A DNA stretch of 64,000 nt. Origin: Candidatus Hydrogenedentota bacterium (lineage in GTDB: Bacteria > Hydrogenedentota > Hydrogenedentia > Hydrogenedentales > G963678445). Shown piece by piece: positions 5,376 through 36,368 of the stretch. The translations under genes were made by a program, and so were the position numbers. Numbering within the stretch: position 1 is the first letter of the stretch; each line of letters begins with the position of its first letter. Location: the NCBI GenBank assembly GCA_963678445.1, contig OY782877.1, positions 1,685,778 through 1,749,777 of the forward strand, given 5' to 3'. The notes under the pieces are model-generated. The model saw only the letters and a program-made list of their open reading frames with translations, was not told the origin of the DNA and made no database searches.

Positions 5376-5453
5376 GACAACCTCCTTGTTGGCTCTGTAT
5401 CGATTATACGCTCTTGAGGGGGAAATGCTCAATGGTCGCGGAGGGGAAAACTA

Positions 5454-6203
5454 TCAGGAGCCTTCCTTGGAAGAGGGTATGGTGGAATGGTGCTGGGGGA
5501 GGTAGGCGCCTCCGGAAACAATGAGTTTCATGGCATCTTCAATGGAAATGTTGAGCGGGGTTAGCTCGTTGCTGGGGACATAGAGCAGGAAGCCCGAGGT
5601 TGGATTGGGGGTGGTCGGGACGAAGACCGCCGTCAGGTCACGTCCGCAGGCTTTTTGCACCACGCCGTGTTCGCGCGCAGTGATAAAGCCTACGACGAGA
5701 AGACCGGGACGGGGGTATTCGACGAGTACGACGGCCTGGAAAACTGCGCCTTCGCGTGTCATGAAGACGTCGCGAATCTGTTGCACGGCGAGGTAAAGAC
5801 GGCTGATAAGAGGAATTTTGCCAAGTATGCGTTCGCCGTATCCGATGATCTTTCGTGCGACCAGGTAACGGGTGAGGAAACCGGTGGTAAGGAAGAGGAG
5901 GGTCGCCATGAGGAAACCGACCCATGGGTCGTATTCGAAGGCCAGTTTTTCGTGTATTGCGGGCACGCGGGCTGCAACGGCGTTGATGTAGTAAACCAAG
6001 CCTTTGAAAAAGGTGTTGATGCCGCCGCCTACTTTGGTGAATACCCACCAGGCAACCCACAGTGTGACGAAGAAGGGGATCCATACGAGAAGGCCGGTGG
6101 TCATATATTGACGCAGGTTGCGTAGGTATGCGCGCAAAAATGAGATAGGGCCGTGGTAGCGGCGTTTTTTCTTGCGGCGTAATGTAAACGGGGGTCTACT
6201 CAT
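5454..6203 (-). CDS. DUF502 family membrane protein
   Basis: N-terminal TM pair followed by the conserved DUF502-like block (KIPLISRLYLAVQQIRDVF...VFVPTTPNPTSGFLLYVP). Confidence 0.6.
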   Translation of the reverse strand: MSRPPFTLRRKKKRRYHGPISFLRAYLRNLRQYMTTGLLVWIPFFVTLWVAWWVFTKVGGGINTFFKGLVYYINAVAARVPAIHEKLAFEYDPWVGFLMATLLFLTTGFLTRYLVARKIIGYGERILGKIPLISRLYLAVQQIRDVFMTREGAVFQAVVLVEYPRPGLLVVGFITAREHGVVQKACGRDLTAVFVPTTPNPTSGFLLYVPSNELTPLNISIEDAMKLIVSGGAYLPQHHSTIPSSKEGS

Positions 6204-8945: not shown

Positions 8946-8984
8946 GGACTATCTCACTCCACCTCGTGCACTTGGGGCGTATTC

Positions 8985-9464
8985 CTACGCACGCAAACGC
9001 CACGCGGCCTCTTTACTGGTATTCAGGTATTGTGCCTGTTTTTCGGTCATAATTTCACGCTCGACATCTGAAGCGTGTGTATATCCTAATAAATGGAGCA
9101 GGCCATGGCAAAAAAGAAGCCGGACCTCGTCGCGCATGGCTTGGGAATCTCCTTTGCAATAACGTTCAACGGTCTCCAAAGAGATGACAATATCGCCAAG
9201 AACACGTTCCCCATGTAGAAGTGTATCCTCTTGAGCAAAGGAAAGCACATCGGTAGGAACCGGTTTTTTGCGATACTCTTCGTTCAGGGTCGTGATAAAA
9301 GGATCGTCGCAGAAAAGCACACTCAATTCCAAGCCTGAATAGCGGGTATCATCGCATGCGCCTTCTTCGCGGCAAACGCGCTCGGCTAATCGCTGGAGAT
9401 TATCGCGGCGGTAAAAGCGTTTGCGTCTGGATTCGTTTCGTATGTCGATATGCACCATAATCAT
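8985..9464 (-). CDS. ybeY: Endoribonuclease YbeY (16S rRNA 3'-end maturation)
   Basis: HGLLHLLGYTH metal-binding motif and size about 159 aa; conserved position downstream of phoH/pgpH. Confidence 0.85.
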   Translation of the reverse strand: MIMVHIDIRNESRRKRFYRRDNLQRLAERVCREEGACDDTRYSGLELSVLFCDDPFITTLNEEYRKKPVPTDVLSFAQEDTLLHGERVLGDIVISLETVERYCKGDSQAMRDEVRLLFCHGLLHLLGYTHASDVEREIMTEKQAQYLNTSKEAAWRLRA

Positions 9465-11968
9465 GCTCCTCCCGATAAGGGGATCACGTTTTTATTTTTA
9501 CCCGAGTCCTTGTCAGCGTCGGGGTACGATACCCGGGTGTGCAGCATCGTAATGATGCGTCGGCTAACTACTTCTTTAATAGTATCAAGTTGCTTCAAAG
9601 TCAAGTTACTGTCGTCGAATTGGCGTCCTTCGGAGCGCGCGGCTACGATTTTTTCGACGAATTCGCGAATGCGTTCCTCGTTGGGGTTTTTAATGGACCG
9701 CACACCGGATTCAACGGCGTCGCAGATCATTAATATCGCCGTTTCGGGACTTTGGGGTTTGGGGCCGGGATAACGAAAGTCTTCTTCGCGCACGTCGTCA
9801 TGCTTGTTTTGTTCGAGTGCTTGCTGGTAGAAGAAGCCGATCAGACATGTGCCGTGGTGTTCCAAAATGCCGTCTACAATCGGCTTGGGAAGGTGGTAGT
9901 TGCGGGCCATCTCAACGCCTTTGAGTACGTGGGAGGCAATGGCGCGCGCACTCAGGCGCGGTGCAAGTTCGTCGTGAATGTTGTAGCCCTGCTGGTTTTC
10001 GGAGAAGTACTCTGAGCGCCACATTTTGCCGATGTCGTGGTAGTAGGCGCAGACTCGTGCCAACAGGCCGTTGGCGCCAACGGCGTCTGCAGCAGCTTCG
10101 GCCAACTGCCCCAGCATCAAACTGTGTGCGTAGGTGGCCGGGGCTTTGATGGCAAGCTGGCTCATTACTTCATTGTTCAGATCGGAGTATTCGAGTAATT
10201 GGATATCGGTGGTAATGCCGAAGAGACGTTCGAAGGGGGACAGCAGGCCGGGCACGGTTAGCAGGCAGACGCCTCCGTTGAGAGCGATGAGCAGCAGGCG
10301 GCGGCCTCCGGTTGCTGCGACAAGCGAGTTGGTGGCGAGCAGGATTGCGGCCATGGCAAACAGACCCACTAATGTGGCTTTGATCGATGCGGCGGCCATG
10401 TCGCTACGACGACGCACTTTGTAGATACTGAAAACGCCCGCAAGGGACATGGCGCCAAGTACGAAAAAAAGACGCCAATCGTATCCATACTGTGCGGAGA
10501 CTAGCAGGGCAATCAAAATGCTGAGCATCGCAGCCAGACGCACGCTGACCAATACGGCGTACAGTATGCCTACTGCCGCTACGGGCAGCAGGTATCCGGT
10601 GGGTTGGAAGTAGAGTGCAATTCGTCCAACGATCAGGGTAATACACATCAACAGTAGCGCCAGGTTTACGTGGGCGAGGGAGTAGGTTTCTGTATTTTCC
10701 CCCCGTAGTAGTCCCATACTTCGAAAAAGACCCGTAAGCACCATGGCGGCCAGTATCATGTGTGAAAGCAGTATGTTAATAATACGCTGTTGTGGCTTTT
10801 GCTCGTTTTCGAGAATAGACAGGTAGGTATTTACGTCGGAACGACTCTGCGCCGTCCAGCGTTTACCCCGGTCCTGGATGATTTCGCCGGGCTCGATGCT
10901 TTTCATGACCGGCGCAATGGATTCTGAAGCACGTTCGAGCGCACCCGCCATAAAAACCTTGTCATAGCGGATCGTGTCCACAAGTGCGGGCTGCACCATC
11001 GGCAATCCGGCATCGTGCAGCTTGGCCCATTCCACCTGTAGCTCAAGGGCAACGGATTTTGCGGTTTCCTGCAGGCGCTGACTCAACACTTCTGCAGCCT
11101 CTTCCACATCGGGCACTTGCTCCATGGCAAGCTGGCTGGAGACGTGCTGATCGTCCTGTAACATGTCACGCAGGATCACGATTTCCTTGTCGCCCCCCAT
11201 AGCAGCGGTACGCACGCCTTGGTGGAGTACGTAGCGGAGGCTTTCAAGCGCAAGCGTTTCCAGATGCTCCGCCAGCGAGAAGAAAAAAGGGGGAACCTCT
11301 TCTGGTTGGAGTGCAATCACAGGCCGGGGAAGCTCTTGGGGGGGTATGGCTTCGCCTTCCGTCTCCACTTCTGCGGGCGGGGTCTCGGCAGGGGGGGCAA
11401 ACTGACGTTTGGGCAAGCTGTCTTTGTCTGGGGTCAACCACAAGTTAAGCGCTGCTGCTTCCGGCAAATCTGCCCATTCAGGCGTTTCTTTGAGTGCCGC
11501 GACATGCGTTGCAACCACGGTCTGAACAATGTCTTCAGCGCGTTGTGTGGAATCCGACTGACGCAGGGTCTCAAGGATGGCATTTTGTATTGCTGGACGC
11601 TGCTCGCGGATGCGCGTGATTCGATTGCGCACGATGGAAAGCTGACGGTTAACCAGATCTTGATCGATTCGATAATGGGGGGGCACCTTTTCCCGTGCCT
11701 CCTCGCGTGCTTGTTGGGTCGCTTTGAGGTTGGGCGCTTCAAAATAGAAAGCCGTTCGGATTTCTGTCGATGCAATGGGGGCGTCCATATCCGCCACGAG
11801 CATTTTTTCGCTTTCGGGCAGACGCGTGAGTGCGGCAACAATGATGACATAGGCGACCAGCACCACTAGCATCTGCGCAGGACGGCGCAATGGGGTGCGT
11901 TGCTTTGCTTCTGGCACGCGTTGGGCGAAACGACCTACGCGCGGTTTTCGTTGGCCAAAGCCTATCAT
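9461..11968 (-). CDS. pgpH: 7TM-receptor with intracellular HD hydrolase domain (7TMR-HDED, PgpH/YqfF-like)
   Basis: Large N-terminal extracytoplasmic region, seven TM helices, C-terminal HD domain (YHDIGK...); 4-nt overlaps with ybeY and phoH. Confidence 0.75.
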
Positions 11969-12888: not shown

Positions 12889-12997
12889 TTCGCCATTTTG
12901 GCCCAGGAGCTGTATTGCCTCATCCTGGCTCTGTAATAGGATCTCGTGACTCAGTTTTTTAATGCCTCAATGCTTGAACGTAAACTACAGCAGGGTT

Positions 12998-13303
12998 TTA
13001 TTCGGTCGTCGATTTTGGTTGAATACGATAAATGGTTTCCCCCTCACGCACAAGGCGTTTAATGTGACGGATAGCCGCTTCGAGCTCCAACGGATCTGCA
13101 TCGAGATCTTTGACGCGCTGTTGCGCGCGGCTTACTTGCTCTTCGAACGCATCCACCTGGCGTTGCATGCTGCGCACTTGCTCTTCGCGTTGCTGATATT
13201 GGGCGTAGCGTCCCAGCAGGTCGCGCTGCACGGCATAGGCCGCCGAAAGCGACGCCACGGCAATGAATGTCACGATGTACCATTTATAGCTTTTTGTTTT
13301 CAT
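12998..13303 (-). CDS. ftsB: Septum formation initiator (FtsB/DivIC-like) small bitopic coiled-coil protein
   Basis: N-terminal TM (WYIVTFIAVASLSAAYAV) followed by a heptad-rich coiled coil; position just downstream of eno is typical. Confidence 0.55.
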   Translation of the reverse strand: MKTKSYKWYIVTFIAVASLSAAYAVQRDLLGRYAQYQQREEQVRSMQRQVDAFEEQVSRAQQRVKDLDADPLELEAAIRHIKRLVREGETIYRIQPKSTTE

Positions 13304-13348
13304 CAACTGCGCGGGGAGGCGCAACGCCTCCCCGCACCCTCCAACAGG

Positions 13349-14671
<1,323 letters not shown>

Positions 14672-14957: not shown

Positions 14958-15758
14958 TTATCCCTTCCAGGGGAAAAGATAATCGCGCAGCCCCCGGTTC
15001 AAATAGTCATCCTGCTCATCGTATTCAACAGGCAAACGCCTGTTGGGCGCTGCAACGCCTTGCGCTATTTGCGTTTCGATATATGCATACTTGCGCGAAA
15101 GCATTTCATACGCGCTGCACCGTAACACGACATAGGCGGGCAGGGCGAAAAACAGGGCAAATGGTGGAAATAGCGACAGAACAAGCAGTATCAGGAGTAC
15201 TATCGCTAATTTCATACAAAAAAAGGGGTTATCCAGCAGTAGAAGTATGGAAAGCCGAAAAATAGCCCACGGCCGTTCCTCTTTAAATACTAATGCGGGA
15301 CCGCCCAAAAATGCGGCCAAGACCGCACCTATGACACCCCAAAAGGCCACGCTGCTAAGCGCATATCCCAACCAGAGAAGGGATTGTGGGACACGCATCG
15401 CGTAGAACCACACGCTTAGACTCAGACAAAACAGCACAGCCATGTATTCGTAGGACAGAAGCACGGCCTGTGTGGCATGGCGGCGCATACCGCTAAAAAA
15501 GGTGCGTAGCGTGCTATCCTGTAGTTCGATGCATTCCTTCACCATCGCCGCCATGCCCACGTTAAGGATCGGCAAGACTCCGAGGAAAAGCAGAAGCACG
15601 AGCATTCCGGCAAAAGCCCAGGCGCCACTTGCGCATGCCGCATAGAGTAGCATCAATATCGGCACCAGCATGAGCATACAGAACATATTGGCTAGCAGCA
15701 GCTTCCCCAAGTGGTCGTAGTAGACCCCAAAGGCGATTTTCAACGTGCGCGTTACCAT
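14958..15758 (-). CDS. Polytopic membrane protein (DUF624/YesL-like)
   Basis: 6-7 TM helices; start set at MVTRTLKIAFG because the longer TTG-start ORF runs through the repeated leader element. Confidence 0.4.
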   Translation of the reverse strand: MVTRTLKIAFGVYYDHLGKLLLANMFCMLMLVPILMLLYAACASGAWAFAGMLVLLLFLGVLPILNVGMAAMVKECIELQDSTLRTFFSGMRRHATQAVLLSYEYMAVLFCLSLSVWFYAMRVPQSLLWLGYALSSVAFWGVIGAVLAAFLGGPALVFKEERPWAIFRLSILLLLDNPFFCMKLAIVLLILLVLSLFPPFALFFALPAYVVLRCSAYEMLSRKYAYIETQIAQGVAAPNRRLPVEYDEQDDYLNRGLRDYLFPWKG

Positions 15759-15781
15759 ACCGAAACCAAAACCGTGTGTCG

Positions 15782-15886
15782 TCCTAAAGCGGTCCAGCGA
15801 CCACAAGGTGCTCAAAGGCACACCCAAGAAATATGGTCCTTACCGTCGCTGACCGCAGCAAAAAGTTCTTTTTTTTATGACAGCTC
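15782..15886 (-). promoter_or_regulatory. Copy B of the repeated promoter/leader element (minus strand), 23 nt upstream of the ATG at 15758
   Basis: The reverse complement reads agctgtcataaaaaaaagaactttttgctgcggtcagcgacggtaaggaccatatttcttgggtgtgcctttgagcaccttgtggtcgctggaccgctttagga; about 90% identical to copy C over about 60 nt. Confidence 0.65.
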
Positions 15887-20044: not shown

Positions 20045-21091
20045 ATGCCTAAAGAAAGCGATACATTTATACCGGTATATAAGCGGCTTTTCCGCCGTCT
20101 TGAGGAAGATATCCTGGCGTTCCGTCTGAAACCTGGGGAGCGTATCGATTCTATTACCCAATTGCAGCAACGGTATCGGATAGGGCGTGAAACGGCTAAA
20201 CGGGTGCTGAAATTGTTGGAGGAGGCGGGATACATTGTGCAACAGCAGGGCAAGGGCTCGTTTGTGCGTGATCGGGGGCCGCTGCAAAAAATCTGGGGGC
20301 TTGTTTTCCCGTTTTACTCGTTGCAGTACGAGGATTTACTGCTGGAAATATCGGCCCGTGCGGCAAAACAGAAGCGTGACTTCCGCCACTTCTGCAATTA
20401 CAACAGCTATGAGGAAGAGTTGCGTCTGGTTGGGCGCATGTTGCAGGAACGCTATGAGGCCATCATCGTTATCCCTACGCTGGATGAGTCACGCACATGG
20501 CAAAAATTCTATTCGCGCCTGCCAAAAACGGATTCGCGTATTATCCTGCTGGACCACACGATGACCAGTAATGAATTTCGTTTTGTTGTTCAAAGCTATG
20601 ATTTGGGTGTGACGCGCGCGCTGCTTTATTTGCTGGAACAAGGCAAGGGCGGGGTGGCTTTCGTTGAAAATGAGGTCTGGGCGGGTCGAAATATGGTGCT
20701 TGAGTTGATGCGCGGCACATATCTTAACCTGATGCGTCAGCATCGACCGGATTTTGAACCCTATATTTTGCCGCGGGCCAGCATGGTGGACGCGGAAACG
20801 GTGCGACGGCGTAATATCGACGGTGTTTTATGCTGCGATGATGTGAGCGCCATCCATGTATTGGGGCGATTGAAGGAACAGGAGATGCAGACCCCGGATG
20901 AGGTGCATGTGGTGGGATATGGCAATACGCACATTAGCCGTTTCTTTACTCCACCGCTTACGTCGGTCGATCCGTGTAATGCTGAGATGGCTGATGTACT
21001 CGCTTCTTTTTTGCTCCCCGACAGCGTTGAAAAGAATACGTTACACCAACAATACGTTGCGCAGCCTCGCCTCATTGTCCGTGGCACGTAA
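20045..21091 (+). CDS. araR: AraR-like transcriptional regulator (GntR-type winged HTH plus LacI/periplasmic-binding-protein-like sugar-binding domain)
   Basis: N-terminal GntR HTH (IDSITQLQQRYRIGRETAKRVLKLLEEAGYIVQQQGKGSFV) followed by a Peripla_BP-like alpha/beta domain; this architecture matches B. subtilis AraR. Confidence 0.65.
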   Translation: MPKESDTFIPVYKRLFRRLEEDILAFRLKPGERIDSITQLQQRYRIGRETAKRVLKLLEEAGYIVQQQGKGSFVRDRGPLQKIWGLVFPFYSLQYEDLLLEISARAAKQKRDFRHFCNYNSYEEELRLVGRMLQERYEAIIVIPTLDESRTWQKFYSRLPKTDSRIILLDHTMTSNEFRFVVQSYDLGVTRALLYLLEQGKGGVAFVENEVWAGRNMVLELMRGTYLNLMRQHRPDFEPYILPRASMVDAETVRRRNIDGVLCCDDVSAIHVLGRLKEQEMQTPDEVHVVGYGNTHISRFFTPPLTSVDPCNAEMADVLASFLLPDSVEKNTLHQQYVAQPRLIVRGT

Positions 21092-21167: not shown

Positions 21168-24100
21168 TTAGCGACGGCGACGCCGCAGGGATAGAGCGCC
21201 GACAGCGGCGCAAAGTCCGGCCAATACTCCCAGGCCCGCCATACCCGCAGCAGGAATGGCCGGAAGTACGGTCAAGTTTGCCTCGAGCATTAGCACATCG
21301 CCGTTGCTGTCGGAGACGATTAGTTGATAGACACCTGCATTCTCTTCATAGACGGCAGGTATGAAGAAACTCAGTAAATCATTGGTCTTTGCAGGCGATT
21401 CCACAGGACGGCCTTCGTATTGCCATTCCAGGGAAAACGGAGGATAGCCTCCATGCGTAATCACAAAGAATGTGTGTGAATTCCCTGCAGTCACCTCAGC
21501 GTCCATGGGTGGTTCAACCACTTGTAAATGAGGTGCCAGCTCAAGTTGAGCGCGTGGCGTACTGTATGTTACGCCGGAATAGGTGGCCTCACACCAGTAG
21601 GAACCGGCATGTGCAAAACCAAGCGGTTCGAGGATGAACTCAGGCGCATCTTCGCCCACGTCATGTATGGCTTTGCTCATCGTGTCGGCCCATTTCCATT
21701 GATAGTGCACACTGCCCACGCCACAGGCGGGCGCAACGGAGAAGGTTTGGCGATCCCCTACGTAAGCGCGGGTATCTTCAGGTTGTTTTGCAAAGCCGCA
21801 CCAGTTTTCGATGGTGTATTGGGCGGTGTCTCCACCTGCGTAATACAAACCGGTCAAATCCTGCACGTCGGCCCCCAACAGGATACCTATCGTCCCCTCT
21901 GCATCGGGTTCCAGCAACTCAACTTGCACGGTATAAACGGGGTCATCATAAAGCAGCATAAAGGAGGCCGCGCTTGCCAGCGTCCCGATGAGAGTAACAT
22001 CGGCTTCGGTAAACGTAGGCGCGACAGGGTCGTCGAATGTTACGACAAAATCTACCTGGGTGTGGGAAGTCGGGTTTTCGGTTGCAAGCACAATCTCGGC
22101 CCGGGGCGGTTGCGTGTCCACAATCAGTTCGTCTACGGTCGCATCGAAGCCCGTACTTCCGCCACTGGTCGCAGCGACTACGACATCGTAGACTCCTTCG
22201 GCAAGCGGCGGCTGGATGGTGTCATCGGGCAGTACCCACTGGCCATTACCAAGATTTTGTGCTGCATAGGTTGTACCGCCCACAGCAACAGAGAGGGTTG
22301 CGTCCAGCTTGTTTACCGTACCCGTCAGCGGCGGGGTAGGATCGGTAGTAAAAAGCTCATTTATTGTCACCACGGGCACGTTCAAATCGATGAGAAGCTC
22401 GTCGGTTGTTTTATCCCGTCCCACGTTGCCTGCCGCATCTGTTGCTGAAACACCTACATTATAGGTCGTGGGAAAGAGTTCTGTCAGCACACCGCTTTCA
22501 AGACGCCATGTGCCATCGCCCAGATTGAGGGCGTCGCAGATCTGACCGCCAACGGTGACAACAATGGTGGCGGTAGGGTCGTCAACGGTCCCTGTCAATG
22601 CTGGGCTTGCACTGCCTGTGATTAAGGTATCCACACTAACTATAGGCTTGAGCACGTCCACCACAATCTCGTCTAACGTGAGATCCTGTGTTTCGTTACC
22701 CACGGAATCGCTCGCCGTCGCTACGACGTCATAGACGCCAGGTAATAAAAGAATGGAGGAGGCGGGCAAAACCCATGTGCCGTCGCCCTGGTTCACGGCA
22801 AAAACGGTGTATAACCAAACTTGCACTAAAACCGTTGCGGTGGGGTCGTTCACAACACCGGAAATTGCCGCCATGCCATCATTGGTGATGAGTGAATCCA
22901 CCCCTACTGTAGGCGCAATTGTATCGACAACAAGTTCGCCGGTCGTTGTATCGTGCAGGGTGTTTCCGATGGTGTCTGTCACGGTGACAGCAACATCGTA
23001 AATACCGTCTGGCAGGGTAGTCACCTGGTTGTCGGCGATACTCCAATGTCCATCGCCATCATTGACCGCCGTCAATGTTTGTCCGGCTACCGTTACACTG
23101 ACTGCTGCGGTGGGGTCGGCCACATCTCCTTGCAAGGGAGGGGTGCGATCGGTGGTCCCCAGATAATCTACGGTGGGAAGGGCTGCATAGAGATGGATGG
23201 TGTCACTTAAAACGGAGGATTCGCCGTATGCATTTTTAATTTTTACGAAAAGCCTCTTTTCTCCATCGCCTTCGCTGAGCTGCACCTGCGGTTGTGACGT
23301 CAGAGGAACCCAGGATGCGCCATCCATGGAAGGGGTTTCACTAGCCATGAAATGGGTCGCACCATTCATGTGGGTCATATCAAGTTGGACTGTGGAATTG
23401 ATGGAGGTTTCCGCATCTTGATTGATCACAAAATCAAAGAGGGTTGGGGGTACATGAAAGGTAATCTGCTGCTTAGGGTCGGTGAAGTATTCTTCTTCAA
23501 GGAGACCATCGAATGGAACCGGAATGGCAGGAATGTTGATGTTGAAATTCACGTCGGTCAGGTTGGCGATGTTTAGCCGAATGGCGACTGTGGGTTGAAG
23601 GGTCACATCGGGCTCAAGTTGAACCGCGGTGGCGATATTGGCAACGGTGACGTCGGCATCGGCGGCTGTGATGTTGCGATGCTCACCGTCGGAGGTAAAA
23701 TTTCCTCGATCGGTTTCCAAGCGTTTAAAGGTGGCCTTGACTTGATCTCCTGCGGTCAGACTGACTCCGATTTTACCGGTGACTACACCGCTGATATCGA
23801 TTGGAATGTCGAAAAGGTCGATATCATTCAATGCCGCTGCCAGCATGACCGTTTCGCCAAGATTATATGCGGTGATCGTTTTTTCATCTTGCAGGCGCAA
23901 CGTTTCGGAGGGAACAATAGGGAAATCGTCTTCCAGCGTGTATTCCTGTCCGAAGGCTTCGAAATGAATCCGGTATTGGCCACCCAGCGAAATACCGATG
24001 TTTTGCTGTACGGTGCTTGGCGCGCCTATAAAATGCAAATCGCCTAAATCCATCCCGATCGGACAGTCTAGCTGGGCTGCGCCATTGAGGGTGCCGGCAA

Positions 24101-24326
24101 AGAGGATGCCGTCGACGCCACCGGTAAAACGCACATCCGCACGCCCTATACCAAAATCGAAGCCTCGCCATCCGGTATCAAAATGCCAATCGGGGAAGCC
24201 TTCTTCCATTTCCAGGGGGGCATGCTCTTCTTCATACGATGCTGCAAAACCCGCCATGGGAAAAATAGCAAGGAGCCCCACAAGCAATCCTCGCGTCACG
24301 CGTTTCTTTCCTTCTTGAGCTGTCAT
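21168..24326 (-). CDS. Large secreted Ig-like-repeat surface protein (1052 aa): signal peptide, beta-rich N-domain, about 5 bacterial Ig-like repeats, 2 Ig I-set-like domains, C-terminal tripartite sorting tag
   Basis: Signal peptide [15 protein letters not shown]; about 95-aa repeats ([12 protein letters not shown] / [11 protein letters not shown] / [11 protein letters not shown]); C-terminus [33 protein letters not shown]. Confidence 0.7.
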   Translation of the reverse strand: [1052 protein letters not shown]

Positions 24327-24347
24327 AACCTCACATCCCTTTATCGC

Positions 24348-27300
24348 TTAGCGCCGCAGACCACGTCGCGTCATTACACCCAATACTGCCAACACTGCAA
24401 CCAGTGTGATCAGACTCCACACACTGCTTGCCGGCACGCCTGTTCCCACCACAACCAAGTGTTTCTGGGTAACCATCTTGATTTCTTCGTAATTTGTCAC
24501 GGTCAGCGACACGGTATATGCGCCATCGTGTTTATAAACATGCACTGGATTCTGTTCCGTGCTCGTGCCGCCATCGCCAAAGTACCAGTACCATTCTGCC
24601 ACCGGCTTGACCGTGGTCAGCGTCCGGTCATAGAACTGTACGGAAAGCGGTGCACGACCTGTAGGTGGAAATGCTTCGAAATCGGCCTCCATGGACGACT
24701 TGGTGTATTTACCGATGAATTGAATCGTGTCACCCACTTCGAGAAGACGCGATACGGTTGCTGGTGTCGGCGCCCCATACCCTTCTAATGGCTTCCAGGT
24801 CAGGCTGAGGGGGCCGCTGGGGATCTGGTTCAGGGTGACTGTTCCCATGCCTTCGTAGATTCCACCGTCACTGTCGGTAAGGGTCCACTCTGCCGCAGCA
24901 GCAGTTACTTTGATTTCCACCGTACCGGTTTCGCGTGTATAGGTGAAGGGGTAATTGTTGGTAATGTTGCGCAACACCATCACCGAGGTGTCTTCGGGGG
25001 CAATCCATCCGGGTATGGGCTTGAACTTGACCATCCGTTCACCATCCGTACTGGCTAGCATCGCGCCACTGTCACGCCATTCGCCACCGGTAACGCGCCA
25101 TTGTGCACCCGCATTGCGGACGGCTTCTGGTAGCAGCGTTACGGATAGAATCCCTTCGCCCTCACCCAGAATGGGGATATAAGAACCCACCAATGTCAGG
25201 GTTTCGCCTGCACCCAGGGTCGCTGTTGCAGGGTTCGGTTCTGGCATCAGGTAGGTGTTCACATAGCCCCAAATCACCTTCAGCTCACCTGTAGGAATGT
25301 CGGTCAATGTCGTATCGCCCAAACCGGTATGGGGAGCACCATCGCCATCGATTAATGCCCACGGCGCCCCTTCCGGATCTACGTTGATGATTACCGTGCC
25401 CAGTTCACGCACATATTCGTAGGTAAGATCGTAGGGCGTGTTGCGCACAATGGTCATTGAGGCCGTCTCTGGTGCAATCCAGCCGGTCATGGGGGTAAAG
25501 GAAAGGGTAGCTTCCCCATCCGGCACTTCGAGTGTTGCACCAGTATTCTGCCAGGCTCCACCGTTAAAACGCCATTGCGCACCCGCGTCGCATACGCGGG
25601 CTGGGGTCAGATTCACGGTAAGATCGACGCGTCCTTCTCCGATGATAGGGGGGTAGTTTCCGGTGAAGGCAACCGATGCACCGGGAAACAGAACCAAATT
25701 CTGGGTGCTGGGCGTGGGGAGCATATAGGTTGCGAGCGGTTGCCAGGTAAGCGCAATTTCGCCTGTAGGCACATTTTCCACGATCGCACTTCCTTCACCG
25801 GTGTGACTTTCCCCGTCGCCATCGATGAATGACCATGGCGCATCCATGGGTGAGGCATAGATTTCTACGGTACCCGTCTGACGTGTCCAGGTTTCTGTCA
25901 GCTCCAACAAGTAGTCTTTGTTGATCGTGACTGTTTTTTTCTCCGGCGCTGCCCAGCCTTGTACGAGGTTGTAGGTAATGGTGTGTTCGCCCACTGGGGT
26001 AGCAACAAAGCTTCCGCTCTCCTGCCATTCTCCATCGTCCAGACGCCAGCGTGGGGTCTGAGCCAATACGCCATCGGGGGCAAAGTCAACTCGCACTGCA
26101 CCTTCATCAGGAATTTCTCCCATGCATGCAGGATAGTTAACAAAAACACTCTTTTGATAGTTCTCGTGCGTGCCCAAGCCTTCTGACAGTCCAATCAGAC
26201 CACCATAAAGATCCAGCTCCAGCCAGGTGATCACGATACGGCCGTCGAAGAACATCTCGATCTGAAAGTTAACCTGATTTTCCGTGATGATATTGCTCAG
26301 GAAAACCTTGTCGAAGGTAACAACGACGCGATTCGTATACTGTTTCCAGTAAACCGTGCCGCCTTGATCGGGTTTCAGGTCGGTAAAGATGCCGGAAATG
26401 CGTGGCAGGTCAAAATGCGCATCCACACTCGGATCATTTTCTGTATCAGGTGCGGTAAAGGTGATGTAGCCATTACTGCCAATGAAAAATGAGCTGTATT
26501 TTTCACCATACAGCGCTACCTGTTTCCCGTCGCTCAGCGTAATTTCAACAGCATCATTGTCTCCCAATGTCACCGGGGTGCCGTCGTAGGGACTGGTACG
26601 ATAATTACTCGTATCATCGACGCAGGCGACGTAGTAATTGTTGGAAAGATTGGGCGTGAAGAGTACGCGTTTATAGCTTACGTTGTTGTTGCCCATGGTG
26701 AAATGCTGTGTAAACCAATCGGTTGGCTCACCAGGACTGGGCTGACCGGTAAAATTAAGTTCTGATTTTGTAAAGGGGAAATCGCGCAACTTAATCGGCG
26801 TCCACTCCAGACGTGTAAGGAAGTTATCCGCATTCTCGCCCGGCCATTCCCAACGCCAGCCCAAGATTCCGAAGAAAACAACTGGGTAGACTTTTGCTCC
26901 CAGATTTAGCTCCGAATCGTTTTGGTAGGTCAGCTCGGTGCGATACCCTGCGGGGGGAATCACGATATCACGCGTTTCGTGTTCCGTTGTATACTGGTTC
27001 CCATCACTCAAATCGATGCTGTCGCATCGCAAGTAGCCATTGGCTACTGCGGCAATGTCCAGCGCAACGCCTGCTTTGGGAAGAGGCACCCAGTCGGGCA
27101 AGGTAATAAGCCCTCGGGTAATAAGTAGGGAAATAAGGTCTAAATTTACCACTTGCGTGCGTCCGGCTTCATCGCGCAATTCTGATGTTTCGTCCAGCAG
27201 GTAGGTATTGAATTCATCACGATCAGAAGCCACCATGTGAAAATCAGGCACGTAGGGGATATCGACAATAAAGGGATCTATCCAGGAGATGGGGATATCA

Positions 27301-30300
27301 AAGGCGAGCTTGAGGAAGAATTCTGCGCCGAAATAGAATCCCCAGTTGCCTGATGCGGCTCCCGCACTCAGCTGATTTTCATTAGCCAAGGTGAAATTAC
27401 CGCTGACGTTGGCGTCGTAGTTGAAGCCGGCCCCGGCGTTAAGACGCACCTGGATCACAAAACCACCGGGTTCGTCGCCACTGCCACCGGGAATCCAGCC
27501 TGAATCGAAACCGAGGTTTTCCATCCCTTGCGGCGGCACCGTAAATTGCACCATGCGCGTGATTGGATCATCGGCTTTTTCATCTGTCGCTTTAAGAGGA
27601 GAGAGGGGCGATTCGTCTGCCGGTTTAGTCCAAGTCTTCGCTTCGCCCGCCAATTCTTCGATTGGAAAATTTGGTTTTTCGTACTGATATACGAAAATTT
27701 GCATAATAGATCCGCCGGGTTCGTCGAGGCGGATGGAAAGGGGACGAATGCGACCATCTTTGAGTTTTTCTTCTGTGCGGCGCTCTGAAATCATTCGCTG
27801 CCCGTTGCTGTAGACAACCACTTCGAAGGGCTGCGCTCCTGCACTTTTCGGCAAGCGGTAGACTATTTCGTAATTTCCTGCTTGCACCGCGACCTTTTCG
27901 CGACCATCGCGCTGGATTGCACTTTTGGCGCCAGTAGCCTGTTGCGCCGCCAACAGTTCGCGGTGTTGCGATGAAAAGCCTGGGTTGCCGACACCTTGCG
28001 CACCCACACGCACGACACGACGCTCTGTTAATCCGTCGTCGCCGTAGTAGGCCACTTCAACGGAGCCATTTGTCTTCGCCAGTGCTGTCAATGCTTCGTC
28101 GGAGATTTGTGGATTGTTGGTATGCGCGGAATAAATCACCGCGTATTCGCCATAGGCGCTCATTCCCATGCCCAAAATAGCCACAAACAATACTATACGC
28201 ATGTATTTTGCATACGTGGATTTATGTCTCAATATAAATGCGCCTCCCAAAGCACAGCATAAGGCAAGCAGTGCAAGCGCAAATCCGTTCATTGTCGGTA
28301 CCATATACTCTACCTCGACTTCGATTTCACCCGTCTCACAGCTTTCCAACTCATCCGCCACCATACACATGTATACGCCGGCGTCGTCCATTTCGGCCGT
28401 ACCAAGGCTCAATACGGGACCTTGGAGCATGCCGGTATCTTCTATTTCGCCTTTCCCTTCGAGCTTGGTCCAATCATAGGTAACTTGGCCGAAAGCGCCG
28501 GTCACCGTGACTTCAAGGGAAAACAGATCGCCTTCTACGACTTTTTGCTGATTCCCGCCATCCACAGAGATGGTCAGCGCGTTTGGATTTAAGGCAATCC
28601 GATCGGTGATGGATTCTTCGGAGAGGTTGCCTGCGCGATCGCGCAGGGATAAAAATATGTCTTTGTAACCTTGACCGGGAGAAAGCTCCCAGGACAACAT
28701 TTCGCTGAAGGGCTGCCATGCGCCCCAATTCTCCCCGTCGTCACTCAAGCGCATCTCGATTACACCGCTACCACTCGCACCTTCGTCGGCTGTCAGCTTT
28801 AATTGCACGTCCGTTACGCGGGTGAAGGGGGCATTTTCGTCGATGACTATCGTACCTGCCGGCGGTGTCATGTCAATCGCAAGCAATCCAGCGCTTTCGC
28901 TGCTGCCAATCTGTCCGAGTACGTCGGTGGCCGTGATGCTTAAGCTGGCAGGACCGTCTACGTCGATAGAAGGGGTAACGGTATAGGTGTATTCATAGCT
29001 GCTGCCTTCATGGGCCGCATAGCTTGCCGCGTGGCCATTGACGGTAACTTCGGGCAATCCGGGTAGGCCGTTGTCATCATTTACGGTGAATGCAATCGTA
29101 ACTACATCGTTGGCCTTGGCGAATTCGGGATAGACGTTGACCGCACTGATGGTGGGTATCGTGCTGTCAATCAGCAACGCTGTTGTATTGGTAAGTGTGT
29201 CGGCATTCCCGACGCTGTCGACAACGGAAATAAGCACTGTGGCGGGGCCGTCGGGATTAATTTCGCCATCGACTGTATATCGGTAGGTATAGGCATCATC
29301 GGTTTGCGTTTCAAAATCCGCTGCATTTCCGTTTATCAGCACGGTGGGATAGGGCTGTACAGCGGTTGCGGCATCGATTGCTGAAAAGGTCAGACGGACC
29401 AGATCGCCATCTTTGGCAACGTTGGGATTTGCCTGCAGGGAGCTAATCTCGGGCGCTTGTGTATCCACGGTCAGCACATCATTGAAGACGGGGGCGGCGA
29501 TGTTGTTTACCATGTCGACCGCGTTTATCTGAATGGCTGCAGCTCCATTGGGGGAATCCGTTACTATGGAATAGGTGAATGTGTATTCGCTACCTGAGTG
29601 ACTGGTAGGCGCGCCAAGGTCTATTCCATCAACGGTGACGGTGGGGATACCTACTAATGGGCTGTAGCTATCCTGAAGTGTGAAGTGGATCTCAACCGTA
29701 TCACCGGCCTTGGCCATAGCGGGCGTTGCGGTGAGTCCGGTTATATCGGGAGGGGACAGGTCAATGGTAAACGCTGTTTCCGAGCGAAGTTCGCCCGCAT
29801 TACCGGCTACGTCTACTGCTGAGAAAACCACCGTTGCAAAACCTTGCGGGGCGCTAGCCGGTACCGCGTAGTCATAGGTATATGCGTTGCCGACAACCAT
29901 GGAGGGTGCGCCTACTACAACGCCTGCTACCGTGAGCATTGGTGCTGCGGAAAGTGCACTCACGTCCTCTACGCGGATGGAGAAGGTAACTGTGTCATAC
30001 GCACCTGCCAGGTAGGGTGTGATGGCGAGATCGTGGAAAGCAGGCGCCGTATTATCGATGAACAATATCGTGGTTTCTGTCGTCTCGGAACTGTTTCCCG
30101 CGGCGTCTGTTACCTGCACTTGCACAGTCGCCGCACCTTCTGGTGCATTCGATGGCAGGGTGTACATGTACGTGTATTCATCACCCGATGCAGATGATGG
30201 CGCGCCTACATTAGCTCCATTCACTTGCATGAGCGGGGCCGAAGGAAGGCCATTTGCATCCGTTGCTTCTACTTTCAGTGTTACGCGATCGCCTGCCCGG

Positions 30301-31967
30301 GCTGGTGAATTCAGGCAGGATACCTGCTGAATCACAGGCGCGGTTCCGTCGACAAAAAGCGTATTTGTGGATGTCTCCTGGCGGGTGTTTCCCGCACGAT
30401 CGACCGCATTCACGACGAGGGAAATGGGACCATCGGACGTAGCGGTCGGCACGGTGTACGCATATGTATATACATTGCCCGACGTAGCGGTCGGCGCACC
30501 CAGATCGACGCCGTTTGCGCGCATGGTCGGTGTGTCGGCAAGGCCATATACATCGCTCACGGTTACCCGCAATGTCGATGCTGTTCCGGGTTGTACATAA
30601 GCGGGATCTGCCTGAAAATTCGTGATGGTCGGCGGGGTGTCATCGATGGTCAACAACGCATTGGACGATTTGCCCTGGCTATTGCCTGCGGTGTCAATCG
30701 CCAATACCTCAATCAATGCCGCGCCTTGTGGAGCGTTAGTGGGCGTGGTGTAGGTATAGGTGTACACATTGCCCGCTGTCGACGTAGGCGCTCCGATAGA
30801 AACCCCGTTTATTGTCATCGTAGGCGCACTTGTTAACGCCACATTATCACTCGCCTCTACGGTGAGGGTTACAACGTCACCGCCTTGCACATATTGGGAC
30901 GAAACCGTCAGTACACCGACAACGGGGCGTGTGGTATCCAGCACCTGAATGGCGATATCTTCTTCATGGTACCCATTGTATGTTGCCGCATCGGTCACCC
31001 GCACGCGGATGGTATGACTGCCTGCGCTTCCCCGATCAATTAAGGTGGCATCGGCAATAGCGACTTCGACAGTGGTGGCGGTGGAAGCATTCAACGCAAA
31101 ACGTCCCCCTGCTGAATCCACCAATGTCCAGGTGTATGGCTCCACTCCATCCGCATCTGTTGCCTGTAACGTCCCCAGCAACGTTCCGTTAGCGTCCGAA
31201 TCCTGCACCGTCAATGCATTGGGCGCAATATCCGTCGGCGGCGCACTGTCCACCTTCAACACAATCGCCCCCATCGTTCCTTTGTCTGGCAGGTTCCACC
31301 CCGTCGTCAACGCTGTACCATTCAAGCCCGTCACCACCCCCATTGCACCTCCGTTGCGGTCTCCAAACCAGCCACTCACTTTCGGCCAACGCCGGTAGCC
31401 AAGTGTTTTTGTGCCGCCGCCTTTTATACCGGCTTCGTCCATTTCGTCCTTGGTGCTTACCAAGGTCACCAGCACTGCGCCCGCCTCGGCCTGTTGCGCG
31501 GTAAAGGAGACTTCCGGGTCGTCGCCATACCCACCCTGGGCAGCAATGACCGGTGTATCCAGATCGACTCCTGAAAAGCAATAGAGCCCACTCGTTTCCG
31601 GTTCTGTATCCCCTGAGAAGGCCAGCGCCACTGTTTGTGCGCCCGTGGGGGGATTGATGCAGTAGAATAACTGTGCGCGTTCATCCTCGCCTTCAAAATC
31701 CACCGCCTCGGTCATCGCCATCCCCCCCAAGGTGGCTGAGGCTTTACGGTGATTGCGGTTGGTCACCCCTAATATGGCCACTTTGGTGCCTGCGGGAATC
31801 GATGCGGTCGTCCATGACCAGGAGCTACCGCTGTTGGTGGTTTCCGCGCTGAATCCGGATTGGATATCGGGACCATTGAGCAAGGTAATCGCCCCGTAGC
31901 ATGGCATAATTACACAGGCAATGAGCATGCCTGTCCAGCATCCCGAAAAGACATTCCGAGCTGTCAT
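24348..31967 (-). CDS. Giant 2539-aa ORF: in-frame fusion of two adhesin-like genes. Module a (about aa 1-1248) is signal peptide + cadherin-like domain + about 8 Ig-like repeats + 2 Ig domains + sorting tag. Module b (about aa 1256-2539) is signal peptide + large domain + about 7 Ig-like repeats + PKD domain + sorting tag
   Basis: Junction ...[54 protein letters not shown]... at about 28200-28226; PKD motif [32 protein letters not shown]; C-terminus [30 protein letters not shown]. Confidence 0.7.
   Translation of the reverse strand: [2539 protein letters not shown]
24770..26270 (-). repeat. Alternating coding repeats in adhesin module b (GAQWR.NGGAWQ..GA modules interleaved with G.V.I...P..APW..IDGDG..HTG.G modules)
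   Basis: Protein-level periodicity in the ORF translation; boundaries approximate. Confidence 0.45.
28950..31000 (-). repeat. Tandem array of about 285-bp coding repeats (about 8 copies) encoding about 95-aa Ig-like modules (P..IS.L.A.P..AK.GD.V.L.F...D......PTV.ING......T...AYTY.YTV) inside adhesin module a
   Basis: Periodicity seen at protein level in the ORF translation; boundaries approximate; nucleotide copies are diverged. Confidence 0.5.
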
Positions 31968-32711: not shown

Positions 32712-35700
32712 CTACAAGGCTTGCAAAGCGCTAATCAGCTGCGCCAATTCCACACGTGCCTTACTCAACAGGGCAGAATCCTGGGTAAAATGCTCGTTAT
32801 CCACAATAATCGCCTCATCAATCGCCAAGGCAGCTTCCACCTCTTTGCGCAGCGCTTCCGGCACCGCCGCTCCCTTGTTTTGCAGCAAGTTTCGCAACAA
32901 GGCGAAGTACTCGTAATCTTCGATACCGTCGCGGGCAATACTCATGCGAATAGAGGCCCAGGGCACGCCGTTGGGACCGGGATAAATGAGATAGCCACAC
33001 CCATGGTGGCCCGGCTGACTGTTCCAGGGCATCCAGGGGCGTTCAGGCCAGCGCTCTTCACCGCTCACGTTATCCGCCCAATGGGTCGTCCCCCAATAGA
33101 GATAGCCTTGCGCGCCATATTTCCAGCACTGCCAGAAGATAAGGCGGTGATCAATGGCAGGGAAATCAATCATGATGCCGGGGCGATCCCAAACGGTATA
33201 GAACCAAAGATTTTCGCCCGCCTCTTTGCGTAATGCAACCATGTTGGGATCAAATTCGCCAATGACCGGGCACCAGGTATCCACCCCGCCCACCAGCGCC
33301 TGCTCTGGAGCACTGGTCTCAAGGACAGGCCATTGCGGCAGATTTTCCTTCACCCACTGGTTCATTTCAAGCACCTGCGGGATGATGTGGCGCGCCATAA
33401 CCGCGACCTCATCGTGCGCATAATACAGGGCTTTGTCTTCCCAGCCCTTTTCCTTGAGCAACGCCTGGGTCGCAAGCACTTTTTCTTTGTACTCGTCGCG
33501 TCCAGAGCCGTCAAAAAGGTCTGGAATGGGGATAAAGAAACAATTCTGCCCATGCGCCATAAGGTATTCGAAATCTTCCAGCATGTTTCCGCCGCCAAGC
33601 GGGAAGTTTTTGATCGGACTCATGCGGTGCTTGAGGTGCAAATCATAAAAACGTTTGCGCACCTCAAAAGGCGTGCGTCCCTCATACTTGTAGAAACGCT
33701 GCACCTGGCTCTCTTTCATCCAGAACGAAGTCTTCAGCGTAGTTTGCTCAGGCAACGCAAAATCCCATACATCTACTTCAAGAGGAACATTCAGTGTACC
33801 CGCATTCGCCGTCGTCACCTTCAGCACGCCGCTGTATTTACCCGGAGCTGTGTCCGCATCGGTATGCACGGTGATATAAAACGGCTGCGCTTCTTGCGTG
33901 AAAGGCACGTCGAGCTGCGCGTTTGGTTCCAGTACATCCGGATAGAAGCCCACTTTTTCGATTGGAAAATTGTATTCTGGCTCGCCAATCTTCACATAGC
34001 CCACGCCATAGATTTCGATCTGATCGGCGCGCAAAACGGTATCGCCATCTTCCTGCTTAAGATCAACGGCCTGCACTGCAAGCTGATTGAGATCCTGCCA
34101 AAGCGGCACCACCACCAGTTGTGCAGATTCGTATTCGTTGCGTGCCAGCTGAATCTGGACCGGTTTAGGAGCTCGTTTTGTGGAAAGCAGTGCTTCATCC
34201 CGGAAAACCTTGCGCAAAGTCGTTTCCGGCACCGCGGCAAAAGCACCCGCTGTAGCAGGCGTGGCCGCCGCTGCATAAAGGCGCGCTACTTCACGGCGCA
34301 ACAGATCCAGCGCTCCTTGCACCTGCGCAATCATCGCCGCACCACCTTCTTGCGGCATGGCTTTCATCAAGGCGTCACTGGCAGCGTTCACCTGCTTTTC
34401 CAGGGAGCTATGGGCGGCAGCACGCACCGCTTCATCGGCCAGTTTTTCCATAGCGGCATAGCCATCCTGCGTCAGTGTTTGCAAGACTTTGTTTTCCGCC
34501 TCAAATGCATTAAACGTGGCCTCTTCCTCGACCACGCCCAGCAATTGGGCGCCACCCGTATCTACCAAACGCATCGCAAGCTGGTATTTGCCACCCGTAG
34601 CCGCGAACAAATCGAATGCCGCCTCTTTTGCTTCTCCCGGCGCACAGGTTTCGCTGACAACCTGGCTTACGACGCTACCATCCGGACGTGTAATCTCAGC
34701 AATGGTGTCCAAGCGACGCGGACGGATGCTCTGGTTGGCAAACTTAAAGCGTATACGGTTTTTACCTATCTTCAACGGCGCAAACTGCACCAGAGAAAGC
34801 GGCGCGTCGATTGCATCTACCGCCACCGCTGGTGCAGGGGTAAAGGCTGCACCGTGAACATTGCCCGACAACTGCGCATCGTGCGCCAGCATGGGCCAGG
34901 GCAGCTTTTCAGGGACATATTTCCCGCCTAAACTCAAACTGCGGACCGTGCGATCTTTACCGGTAAAAATAATCTCAACTTCACCATCCCCATCCACATC
35001 GCCCAAAGCAGGTGTCGTCAACGGCTGGGCCGTGGTTTTGAAATCCCACTCTTCTTCCCCCTGTGCAGAGAAACAAACCAAACGACTGGAGCGTGCGCAC
35101 ACGAGGATTTCGAGCTCGCCATCGCCATCTACATCGCCCACCGAAGGGCCTTGTACAATGCCGCCCAAACGCGCAGCACCGGCATCGGCCGCCCATAGCA
35201 ATTCTCCATTGCGAATACGATAAACGTGGCCGGATTTGTCGCCCGCAAGCACATCCAACATCCCTTTGCCCTCAAAATCAACCAGCGCAAATGAACAGGC
35301 GTTATCAATACTCCCCTTACCCTTGAACCGCCATTGTTCCTCCCCATTTTCCGCATCATAGGCAATCACCTGGAAATCTTCCGTCGCCGAAACCACCTCC
35401 AGACGCCCATTTCCATTCAAATCGCCCACCGCAACGTTACTACGGCGCTCTTTGCGGGGCTGTCCATCCATCTGTGACCAGACCAGATTGCCATCATGGT
35501 CAAAACAGGCCATCAACCCGCCGCCAAAGGTAATATAAACTCGCATTACCGGACTGTCACCCAGTTGTGCAACGGCAGGAATGCCACGGATCGCGCCGTC
35601 GGCCTGATAATGCCACAGGGCTTGTCCTGTATCATCAAGACAGTACAGTGTACCGCTTTCCGAACCAAAAAGAATCTCAATACGTCCATCCGCGTTGATG

Positions 35701-36137
35701 TCAGCAACCACAGGACCGGTATAATCCATCTCATCGCCCATGGAAACACGCCAGACAAGACGCCCCTGGTAATCCAGGCAACCCGCCGAACCATCACGGG
35801 TAAGGAAAAAGACTTCCTTTTTCCCATCACCGTCATAATCCACTACGGACGGTGTCGCATGAAAACCATCCAACACCTCTTCTTTCAGATGAAAATCCCA
35901 GCGTAAATTGCCTTGGCCATCAAAGCAAAGCATGCGACGCGCCCGTGAGGCAGCCACAATGATTTCCGTCGCCCCATCTCCGTCAATATCAGCAAGAACA
36001 GGCGAGGCGTAAATCTTGCCCCCCGTTTCATAGCTCCACTCCACCTCCGGCGCAACCGTTGCGGCTACGCCTGGCAGTGAAAAAAGGGGGGAAACACATA
36101 CCACTACGCAACACACATTTCGAAAAAATAGGTTCAT
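32712..36137 (-). CDS. Secreted FG-GAP/beta-propeller repeat protein with a C-terminal glycoside-hydrolase-like domain (1142 aa)
   Basis: Signal peptide at internal start MNLFFRNVCCVVVCVSPLFSLPGVAA (AGGAG RBS); about 8 DxDGDGxxE(I/V) FG-GAP/VCBS blades; C-terminal region is TIM-barrel-like (DUF4091-like, uncertain). Confidence 0.65.
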   Translation of the reverse strand: MNLFFRNVCCVVVCVSPLFSLPGVAATVAPEVEWSYETGGKIYASPVLADIDGDGATEIIVAASRARRMLCFDGQGNLRWDFHLKEEVLDGFHATPSVVDYDGDGKKEVFFLTRDGSAGCLDYQGRLVWRVSMGDEMDYTGPVVADINADGRIEILFGSESGTLYCLDDTGQALWHYQADGAIRGIPAVAQLGDSPVMRVYITFGGGLMACFDHDGNLVWSQMDGQPRKERRSNVAVGDLNGNGRLEVVSATEDFQVIAYDAENGEEQWRFKGKGSIDNACSFALVDFEGKGMLDVLAGDKSGHVYRIRNGELLWAADAGAARLGGIVQGPSVGDVDGDGELEILVCARSSRLVCFSAQGEEEWDFKTTAQPLTTPALGDVDGDGEVEIIFTGKDRTVRSLSLGGKYVPEKLPWPMLAHDAQLSGNVHGAAFTPAPAVAVDAIDAPLSLVQFAPLKIGKNRIRFKFANQSIRPRRLDTIAEITRPDGSVVSQVVSETCAPGEAKEAAFDLFAATGGKYQLAMRLVDTGGAQLLGVVEEEATFNAFEAENKVLQTLTQDGYAAMEKLADEAVRAAAHSSLEKQVNAASDALMKAMPQEGGAAMIAQVQGALDLLRREVARLYAAAATPATAGAFAAVPETTLRKVFRDEALLSTKRAPKPVQIQLARNEYESAQLVVVPLWQDLNQLAVQAVDLKQEDGDTVLRADQIEIYGVGYVKIGEPEYNFPIEKVGFYPDVLEPNAQLDVPFTQEAQPFYITVHTDADTAPGKYSGVLKVTTANAGTLNVPLEVDVWDFALPEQTTLKTSFWMKESQVQRFYKYEGRTPFEVRKRFYDLHLKHRMSPIKNFPLGGGNMLEDFEYLMAHGQNCFFIPIPDLFDGSGRDEYKEKVLATQALLKEKGWEDKALYYAHDEVAVMARHIIPQVLEMNQWVKENLPQWPVLETSAPEQALVGGVDTWCPVIGEFDPNMVALRKEAGENLWFYTVWDRPGIMIDFPAIDHRLIFWQCWKYGAQGYLYWGTTHWADNVSGEERWPERPWMPWNSQPGHHGCGYLIYPGPNGVPWASIRMSIARDGIEDYEYFALLRNLLQNKGAAVPEALRKEVEAALAIDEAIIVDNEHFTQDSALLSKARVELAQLISALQAL

Positions 36138-36368
36138 CTCTTTCTCCTGTTTATAGCAAGATCCAACCGTCCAAAATCTGTCGTATTGCAATTTCGCATT
36201 GTGACACGAATGTGTTTCAATATACAAAAAGCATGCCCGCGACCTTGACGGAGATGTAACCGACTTTATTTCAAGTACTTAACTTGCTCCCAACACTGTC
36301 TTTAAACCCGTTCAGCAGCTGAACCAACTCACACCCGCAAAGTCGCTAATGCCACCCCAAAAAATTGC

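Follow-up and report, generated by a model that had tools for sequence, protein, structure and literature searches.

Can a single bacterial gene carry two complete surface proteins, each with its own export and sorting signals, and still deliver two products? The question is raised by a locus in a 64,000-nucleotide stretch (hereafter the window) of contig OY782877.1, assembly GCA_963678445.1, from a Candidatus Hydrogenedentota bacterium. A minus-strand open reading frame (ORF) of 2539 amino acids (aa) has in its middle a segment built like a C-terminal sorting tag, followed six codons later by a segment that resembles an N-terminal signal peptide. The original prediction left three readings of this arrangement: recent loss of a stop codon, with read-through fusion or pseudogenisation; an assembly or sequencing error; or a true polyprotein that a sorting enzyme cleaves. 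The join proved to be real and conserved, and it keeps every topogenic feature. We consider it rather probable that the ORF is a true tandem gene for surface proteins, maintained in evolution, and that it encodes a Sec-exported polyprotein which is released as separate proteins. The last of the three readings is thus the best supported, its cleavage step being predicted from sequence.

The ORF listing and the translation agree that two complete tag-bearing surface-protein units, unit 1 (aa 1-1249) and unit 2 (aa 1256-2539), are joined in frame without a stop, as the original prediction had described. The mid-ORF translation on the minus strand reads ...EVEYMVPTMNGFALALLALCCALGGAFILRHK-STYAKY-MRIVLFVAILGMGMSAYG-EYAVIYSA.... 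The tag is tripartite (VPTMNG, a 19-aa helix and RHK) and has the same build as the end of the neighbouring 1052-aa protein, which the translations and a comparison of tags bear out. Exactly six codons, TCC ACG TAT GCA AAA TAC (read as STYAKY), separate it from the signal-peptide-like segment MRIVLFVAILGMGMSAYG/EY, the slash marking here and below a predicted cut. By rule-based criteria, aa 1256-1273 form a Sec signal peptide composed of K-Y-M-R, then IVLFVAILGMGM, then S-A-Y-G/E, and signal peptidase I is predicted to cut between G1273 and E1274. The ATG of the whole ORF is preceded by gaggggaagga, which resembles a Shine-Dalgarno (SD) sequence.

The same gene occurs in further assemblies of the species. 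An identical 2539-aa product (P0161) is encoded on a 5.11-Mb contig, and copies with 99.6% and 97.2% identity are found on a 3.55-Mb contig and on a 26-kb contig from another sample, respectively; all three contigs carry names in the style of long-read assemblers. The junction DNA is open in all three assemblies and identical in the two larger contigs. In the most divergent copy TAT is replaced by CAT and TAC by GGT, so that the linker STYAKY becomes STHAKG and the loop RHKSTHAKGMR, and the changes in the helices are conservative (F to W, V to A, I to V). It had been pointed out that TAT and TAC in the linker each lie one substitution from a stop. This is true but uninformative as an argument, since a sibling strain has CAT and GGT instead.

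Relatives were collected as 98 genomic loci, in which fusion was read by tblastn-anchored upstream extension, and from 1.84 billion representatives, searched exhaustively with aa 1-720 of unit 2. Genome loci with a unit 2 relative belong to metagenome-assembled genomes (MAGs) of Hydrogenedentota in all but two cases. The in-frame join is present in 13 distinct lineages at 37-63% identity (WIN, L001, L005/15, L006, L007/17/18, L008/22, L010/30, L019/26, L012, L013, L014, L016 and L020/31). Among close full-length relatives in the representative search, four clusters are fused (2539, 3617, 1983 and 2557 aa, with the unit 2 match beginning at residues 701-1297) against one split cluster (1313 aa). 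The two-gene form was seen in two lineages only, L002 and L003/4/9/29. There the unit 1 gene stops at its tag and is followed, after a spacer of 65-75 nucleotides (nt) with an SD-like sequence, by a unit 2 gene whose signal peptide is of the usual kind. More distant unit 2 homologues (L023-27, L032-37) are encoded on their own and lack the C-terminal tag; they served as outgroups for a bootstrapped neighbour-joining tree of unit 2. In this tree the split L003 is nested inside fused clades (support 82/96/93), and the position of L002 has a support of 48. On the simplest history a single old fusion would have been undone at least once by fission; otherwise five or more independent fusions would be required. 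Under both histories, to judge from the tree, there was more than one change between the fused and the split state, and the fused form has survived deep divergence. As read from these loci, the two-gene and the fused form are orthologous and convert into each other. Chance does not account for the join, because it coincides exactly with the boundary between units which some relatives encode as two neighbouring genes, and because, in a scan of ORFs of at least 700 aa across the 98 loci, an internal hairpin of helix, basic loop and helix was confined to this family.

Some of these relatives show peculiarities of their own. In L001 the N-terminal portion of unit 1 is found, after several frame changes, in different reading frames (5017..6510), upstream of the called 1983-aa gene, and the junction is intact; unit 1 may be degraded or mis-assembled there. 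On the contig of P0004, a fused relative, a frameshift near the last third splits unit 2 (genes 7769-13516 and 13492-15402); the called protein ends out of frame and an overlapping 636-aa PKD gene follows. L006 (CAZMVU010000023.1) is labelled 'uncultured Nitrospirales', and its locus is the sister of that in the window, all other labelled relatives being Hydrogenedentota; the label may be a binning or labelling error.

The anatomy of the junction is kept across the fused lineages. In all of them helix 1 measures 17-20 aa and the loop 3-11 aa, with a charge of +3 to +5 and never an acidic residue; helix 2 together with the c-region takes 16-31 aa. At the predicted cut site, Ala occupies position -3 (Thr in one case) and either Ala or Gly occupies position -1, with Pro or Gly at -4 to -7 in most lineages. 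The residue after the predicted cut is Glu in all sequences of this first junction except that of L006, which has Gln; at the second junction of L006, described below, it is Ala. The stretch after the predicted cut is conserved as E-[VA]-[AT]-V-V-Y-S-A (E-Y-A-V-I-Y-S-A in the window), and the same cut site with downstream E-x-x-V-[VI]-Y-S-A makes up the predicted mature N-terminus of unit 2 in the split orthologues. The rule-based signal-peptide pattern at helix 2 is found in 13/13 fused lineages and in both split orthologues, and the Pro of the tag is invariant in all 29 internal and terminal tags compared. A polyprotein is favoured because the preserved features are those needed for topogenesis and processing, and not a particular sequence.

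The following course of events is proposed. The N-terminal signal peptide would start Sec export of the immunoglobulin (Ig)-like repeats of unit 1, and the tag helix at aa 1228-1246 would halt the transfer. The 11-residue loop with a charge of +4 would remain cytoplasmic, and the helix at aa 1258-1273 would re-enter the membrane as an internal signal peptide and restart export, now of unit 2, until the final tag helix halts transfer again. Signal peptidase I would cut after SAYG, giving unit 2 the mature N-terminus E-Y-A-V-I-Y-S-A that is predicted for the two-gene orthologues, and a putative enzyme recognising [VIL]-P-x-x-[GS], a helix and an Arg cluster would process both tags. The outcome would be two mature surface proteins in a 1:1 ratio and a discarded helical hairpin of about 50 residues. 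Large periplasmic domains that follow a helical hairpin are exported normally in SecD/F and AcrB. Sortase is also said, from the work of Navarre and Schneewind in 1994 with Seb-Cws-BlaZ hybrids, to cut LPXTG signals that have extra sequence after them.

A third gene extends the array. Gene 3, which encodes the 1052-aa protein, lies directly downstream; apart from it and the 2539-aa ORF, no ORF of the window has such a tag at its end. The second junction, a single TAA and a short spacer ahead of gene 3, is identical in the sibling assemblies. In L006 (425..11347), the closest relative at 60-63% identity, this junction is free of stops as well, which results in a three-unit ORF of 3640 aa. Its units 2 and 3 are joined as ...GLPALS-RTALALLAAIVMIAGALLYW-RRR-LPLALLLVAVFAANGAHA/AEYRE..., that is, LPALS, helix, RRR, helix and AHA/AEYRE, and the third segment of that ORF shares 44% identity with gene 3 across 1029 aa. 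A homologue search with the first 390 aa of gene 3 returned none, and fusion at the second junction is known only from L006/P0013. On the explanation that we prefer, the 2539-aa ORF forms part of an array of three surface-protein genes, and stops between a tag and the next signal peptide are dispensable in it. In the sibling strain L097 the tag of gene 3 (8777..11908) is LPATG, a literal LPXTG, where the window has IPAAG.

Which class of sorting tag is this? The consensus of the 29 tags is [VILM]-P-[AVTL]-[ATSIL]-[GS], with no second Pro, and the three tags of the window, VPTMN(G), VPASS and IPAAG, do not carry the Pro-Glu-Pro signature of PEP-CTERM. They do have the helix and Arg-rich cluster of that class, the helix of 17-20 aa being followed by RHK, RRGLRR or RRRRR. 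The tags at the end of the ORF and of gene 3 also sit at the extreme C-terminus, whereas 1290 residues follow the tag at aa 1223-1249. Against the PEP-CTERM model (TIGR02595, cutoff 16 bits) the best score is 14.3 bits, for the gene 3 tag, and 2 of 29 tags match at E<=1. With IPTL-CTERM (TIGR04174, cutoff 20.5 bits) the internal tag scores 14.5 bits, and 11/29 tags give sub-threshold matches (best E 1.3e-4). The curated model matched by most tags turned out to be midcut-by-XrtH (NF033207, cutoff 45 bits), with 17/29 sub-threshold matches (best E 0.0017) of 13-17.5 bits that cover only the tag-like part, model positions 33-65. Like that family, the 2539-aa protein has a signal in mid-protein (aa 1223-1249), a resemblance of architecture only. 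Sub-threshold matches to LPXTG (TIGR01167) were obtained for 7/29 tags. A literal LPATG ends unit 2 in L010/L019/L030 and gene 3 in L097, and most others have LPAAG or VPAAG. The window also encodes SurA, an OmpA-family protein and YhdP, and the cell is therefore diderm, which does not agree with the monoderm wall of LPXTG/sortase systems. In such an envelope an Ig-repeat protein anchored in the inner membrane would therefore need release to reach the surface. The tag was found on no unrelated protein in a scan of all fetched loci, and a full-text search of the literature returned no mention of a sortase or exosortase in Hydrogenedentota.

Of the other explanations, an error of assembly or sequencing at 28200-28226, by which a stop was lost or the frame was shifted, is conceivable a priori, with nothing further in its favour, and we regard it as practically negligible. 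The join is open in three independent assemblies of the species, with a variant yet open junction in one of them, and the same architecture recurs in about a dozen MAG and metagenome assemblies of different projects, taken from NCBI, ENA, JGI and Logan. A recent loss of the stop codon, whether as a fresh read-through fusion or as a decaying pseudogene, would be mechanistically easy, given that a single TAA separates in-frame genes at the second junction, and two-gene versions do exist in L002 and L003. It is nevertheless very improbable: the fused form prevails by 13 lineages to two over 37-63% identity, both halves are intact and of full length, the linker of the sibling strain has changed its amino acids without acquiring a stop, and a split lineage is nested within fused clades. 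The comparison with orthologous loci, which the original prediction had proposed, has thus given the outcome named there as refuting both error and stop loss, namely relatives with an uninterrupted join. Only slightly more credible, and still improbable, is that unit 2 is made separately by initiation at the internal ATG (28200-28202), the read-through fusion being a by-product. This ATG stands exactly at the start of the signal-like segment in the window and the sibling strains, and many genes of the window have no obvious SD. However, the internal ATG lacks an SD, which the actual start codons of genes 2 and 3 possess, a corresponding Met is missing in all other fused lineages except the same-species L097, and unit 1 would be left unterminated. 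A promoter-like sequence was considered and rejected: one 9/12 match overlaps the linker, but 2 such matches against 0.8 +/- 1.0 expected are no more than chance would give, and L097 does not share the match.

A more serious competitor, though in our view an unlikely one, is a three-helix membrane protein that is left uncleaved or is cleaved in part, in which the hairpin serves as a permanent anchor and both domains are periplasmic, or signal peptidase alone cuts and unit 1 stays anchored by the hairpin. Two helices with a short positive loop are indeed the build of a stable polytopic anchor, and several observations that fit this picture weigh at the same time against the polyprotein. An exosortase, sortase, rhombosortase or CPBP-type protease is not among the ORFs of the 64-kb window according to Pfam and NCBIfam, and all tags score below the cutoffs of the curated models for C-terminal sorting domains. 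The internal VPTMNG of the window is one residue longer than the consensus P-x-x-G and could be a weakened substrate. Further points against the polyprotein are that sorting enzymes of this kind normally see their tags at the extreme C-terminus, that the signal peptidase site was assigned by the -3/-1 rule and not by a trained predictor, that the unit 1 part of L001 is broken by frame changes, so not all copies are intact, and that we infer how the chain is placed in the membrane, its two cleavages and which enzyme does the sorting. On the other hand, the tag motif, with its invariant Pro, and the small residues at -3 and -1 are kept internally as strictly as at true termini and signal peptides, which an anchor would not need; the split orthologues make two proteins from the same parts; and in a diderm cell the surface would be out of reach for adhesin-like Ig-repeat domains held at the inner membrane. 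The polyprotein therefore remains the reading that we prefer. It is an evenly balanced matter whether the wider proposal holds, by which Hydrogenedentota make secretory polyproteins of two and, in one lineage, three proteins. These would be woven through the membrane by Sec with the help of tag helices and internal signal peptides, then cut by signal peptidase I and by an uncurated enzyme for [VIL]-P-A-A-G tags that accepts internal tags, with stops being optional and gained or lost without loss of function.

Table 1. Features of the surface-protein array in the window (a slash marks a predicted cut).
Feature	Position in window	Strand	Description and basis
Fused two-unit surface-protein gene	24348..31967	-	Single ORF, ATG start, 2539 aa, stop TAA 24348-24350 (ORF listing, translation)
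Unit 1 N-terminal signal peptide	31893..31967	-	aa 1-25, MTARNVFSGCWTGMLIACVIMPCYG/A; hydrophobic segment, cleavage site predicted by the -3/-1 rule
Unit 1 ectodomain	28302..31892	-	aa 26-1222; tandem bacterial Ig-like repeats: Big_13, Big_3_3, Big_12, DUF7743, terminal Ig_3 (Pfam)
Internal tag signature	28287..28301	-	VPTMN(G), aa 1223-1227; aligns with [VILM]-P-x-x-[GS] of all related tags
Helix 1 of the junction	28230..28286	-	aa 1228-1246, GFALALLALCCALGGAFIL, 19 aa; transmembrane segment of the tag, proposed stop-transfer
Basic loop	28197..28229	-	RHKSTYAKYMR, aa 1247-1257, charge +4, zero acidic residues; proposed cytoplasmic, contains the six-codon linker
Internal ATG (M1256)	28200..28202	-	Within the basic loop; upstream SD absent
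Helix 2 and c-region	28149..28196	-	aa 1258-1273, IVLFVAILGMGMSAYG; candidate internal signal peptide, A at -3, G at -1
Predicted mature N-terminal peptide of unit 2		-	From E1274: EYAVIYSAHTNNPQISDEALTALAK (-3/-1 rule)
Unit 2 ectodomain	24438..28148	-	aa 1274-2510; first ~480 aa without family match, then ~200-aa domain, ~115-aa repeat modules, PKD
~200-aa domain of unit 2	26118..26723	-	Unit 2 aa 494-695 (DWFTQHF...QIEMFFDGRI); widespread, without Pfam/NCBIfam model
PKD domain near the end of unit 2	24471..24605	-	Pfam
Unit 2 C-terminal tag	24351..24437	-	VPASS + SVWSLITLVAVLAVLGVMT + RRGLRR (translation, tag comparison)
Second junction	24327..24350	-	Single TAA and 21-nt spacer with SD (gtgagg); reading frame shared with gene 3
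Gene 3, 1052-aa surface protein	21168..24326	-	Ca-tandemer/Big_13 repeats (Pfam)
Gene 3 signal peptide	24243..24326	-	
Gene 3 tag	21171..21257	-	IPAAG + helix + RRRRR

The terminal PKD domain was the sole match when three sub-segments of unit 2 were compared with Pfam at E<=5, and AlphaFold2 gave no usable fold for aa 20-720 of this unit with a 7-row alignment (mean predicted local distance difference test score, pLDDT, of 33). The domain of about 200 aa has 2030 matches among the 1.84 billion representatives, mostly in giant multidomain proteins. In the second half of the unit (24453..26042, minus strand) the translation reveals alternating repeat modules without family assignment. Module A is present in about three copies (...AGAQWR..GG.W..SG...DGE....F....GW..PE...), and module B in about four (...GTV.I...P..A.W...D.DG..H.G.G......PTG......W...).

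Upstream of the array lies a gene for a 1171-aa protein with FG-GAP/beta-propeller repeats and a GH123 glycoside hydrolase domain (32712..36227, minus strand), and downstream a GntR-type regulator (20045..21091). Farther away, a 543-aa ORF (12962..14593, plus strand) is the shadow of an enolase gene (13349..14635, minus strand), the 428-aa product of which is 80-86% identical to enolases of Candidatus Hydrogenedentes/Hydrogenedentota. A 289-aa protein with about five hydrophobic segments and no Pfam or NCBIfam match (14958..15827, minus strand) is conserved beside a SurA-like gene in the sibling genome L098.

How does the arrangement compare with known systems? It shares with the tripartite C-terminal tags of the PEP-CTERM/exosortase, IPTL-CTERM and LPXTG/sortase systems the same order of motif, helix of about 20 aa and Arg/Lys cluster, carried by repeat-rich surface proteins with signal peptides. 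Unlike those tags, one of the present ones is internal, with about 1290 residues after it, and the signature is neither PEP nor IPTL. Among curated families, midcut-by-XrtH comes closest to the notion of an internal sorting signal, and we take it to be a family with an exosortase-type sorting signal in mid-protein; its model has a length of 175 and describes small proteins. To our knowledge, these have neither a second signal peptide nor a second large exported domain. A precedent for an internal sorting tag combined with an internal signal peptide in bacteria was not found in the searchable literature. SlpA of C. difficile (processed by Cwp84), RgpA/Kgp/HagA of P. gingivalis and Atl of S. aureus likewise yield at least two mature surface proteins from one gene. 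As far as we know, their precursors cross the membrane once, are processed by soluble or surface proteases at sites outside the membrane and contain no internal transmembrane hairpin, tag or signal peptide.

If the proposed reading is true, the locus would be a natural setting in which to test the ability of exosortase- or sortase-like enzymes to act on internal tags, and it would reveal a new, uncurated class of sorting tag in a poorly known phylum. It would also mean that neighbours in an operon which carry a tag at the C-terminus and a signal peptide at the N-terminus are free to fuse and to separate, the fusion joint being self-resolving. In annotation, giant ORFs of this type ought not to be treated as errors of frameshift or stop loss, and mature products should be predicted for each unit. 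The junction could serve as a compact design for co-secretion of two proteins at a fixed 1:1 ratio. In function, the closest likeness is to viral envelope polyproteins, such as C-prM-E of flaviviruses, E3-E2-6K-E1 of alphaviruses and E1-E2 of hepatitis C virus, each of which is threaded as a single translation product through a Sec-type translocon by alternating stop-transfer and internal signal sequences and is divided by signal peptidase into individual ectodomain proteins. The likeness is one of function only and not of homology, those being systems of eukaryotic hosts. In contrast to them, the second cut would here be expected from a tag-sorting enzyme, and the bacterial form interconverts with two-gene operons. 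If the chain is cut as proposed, it would be a bacterial counterpart of the viral envelope polyproteins.

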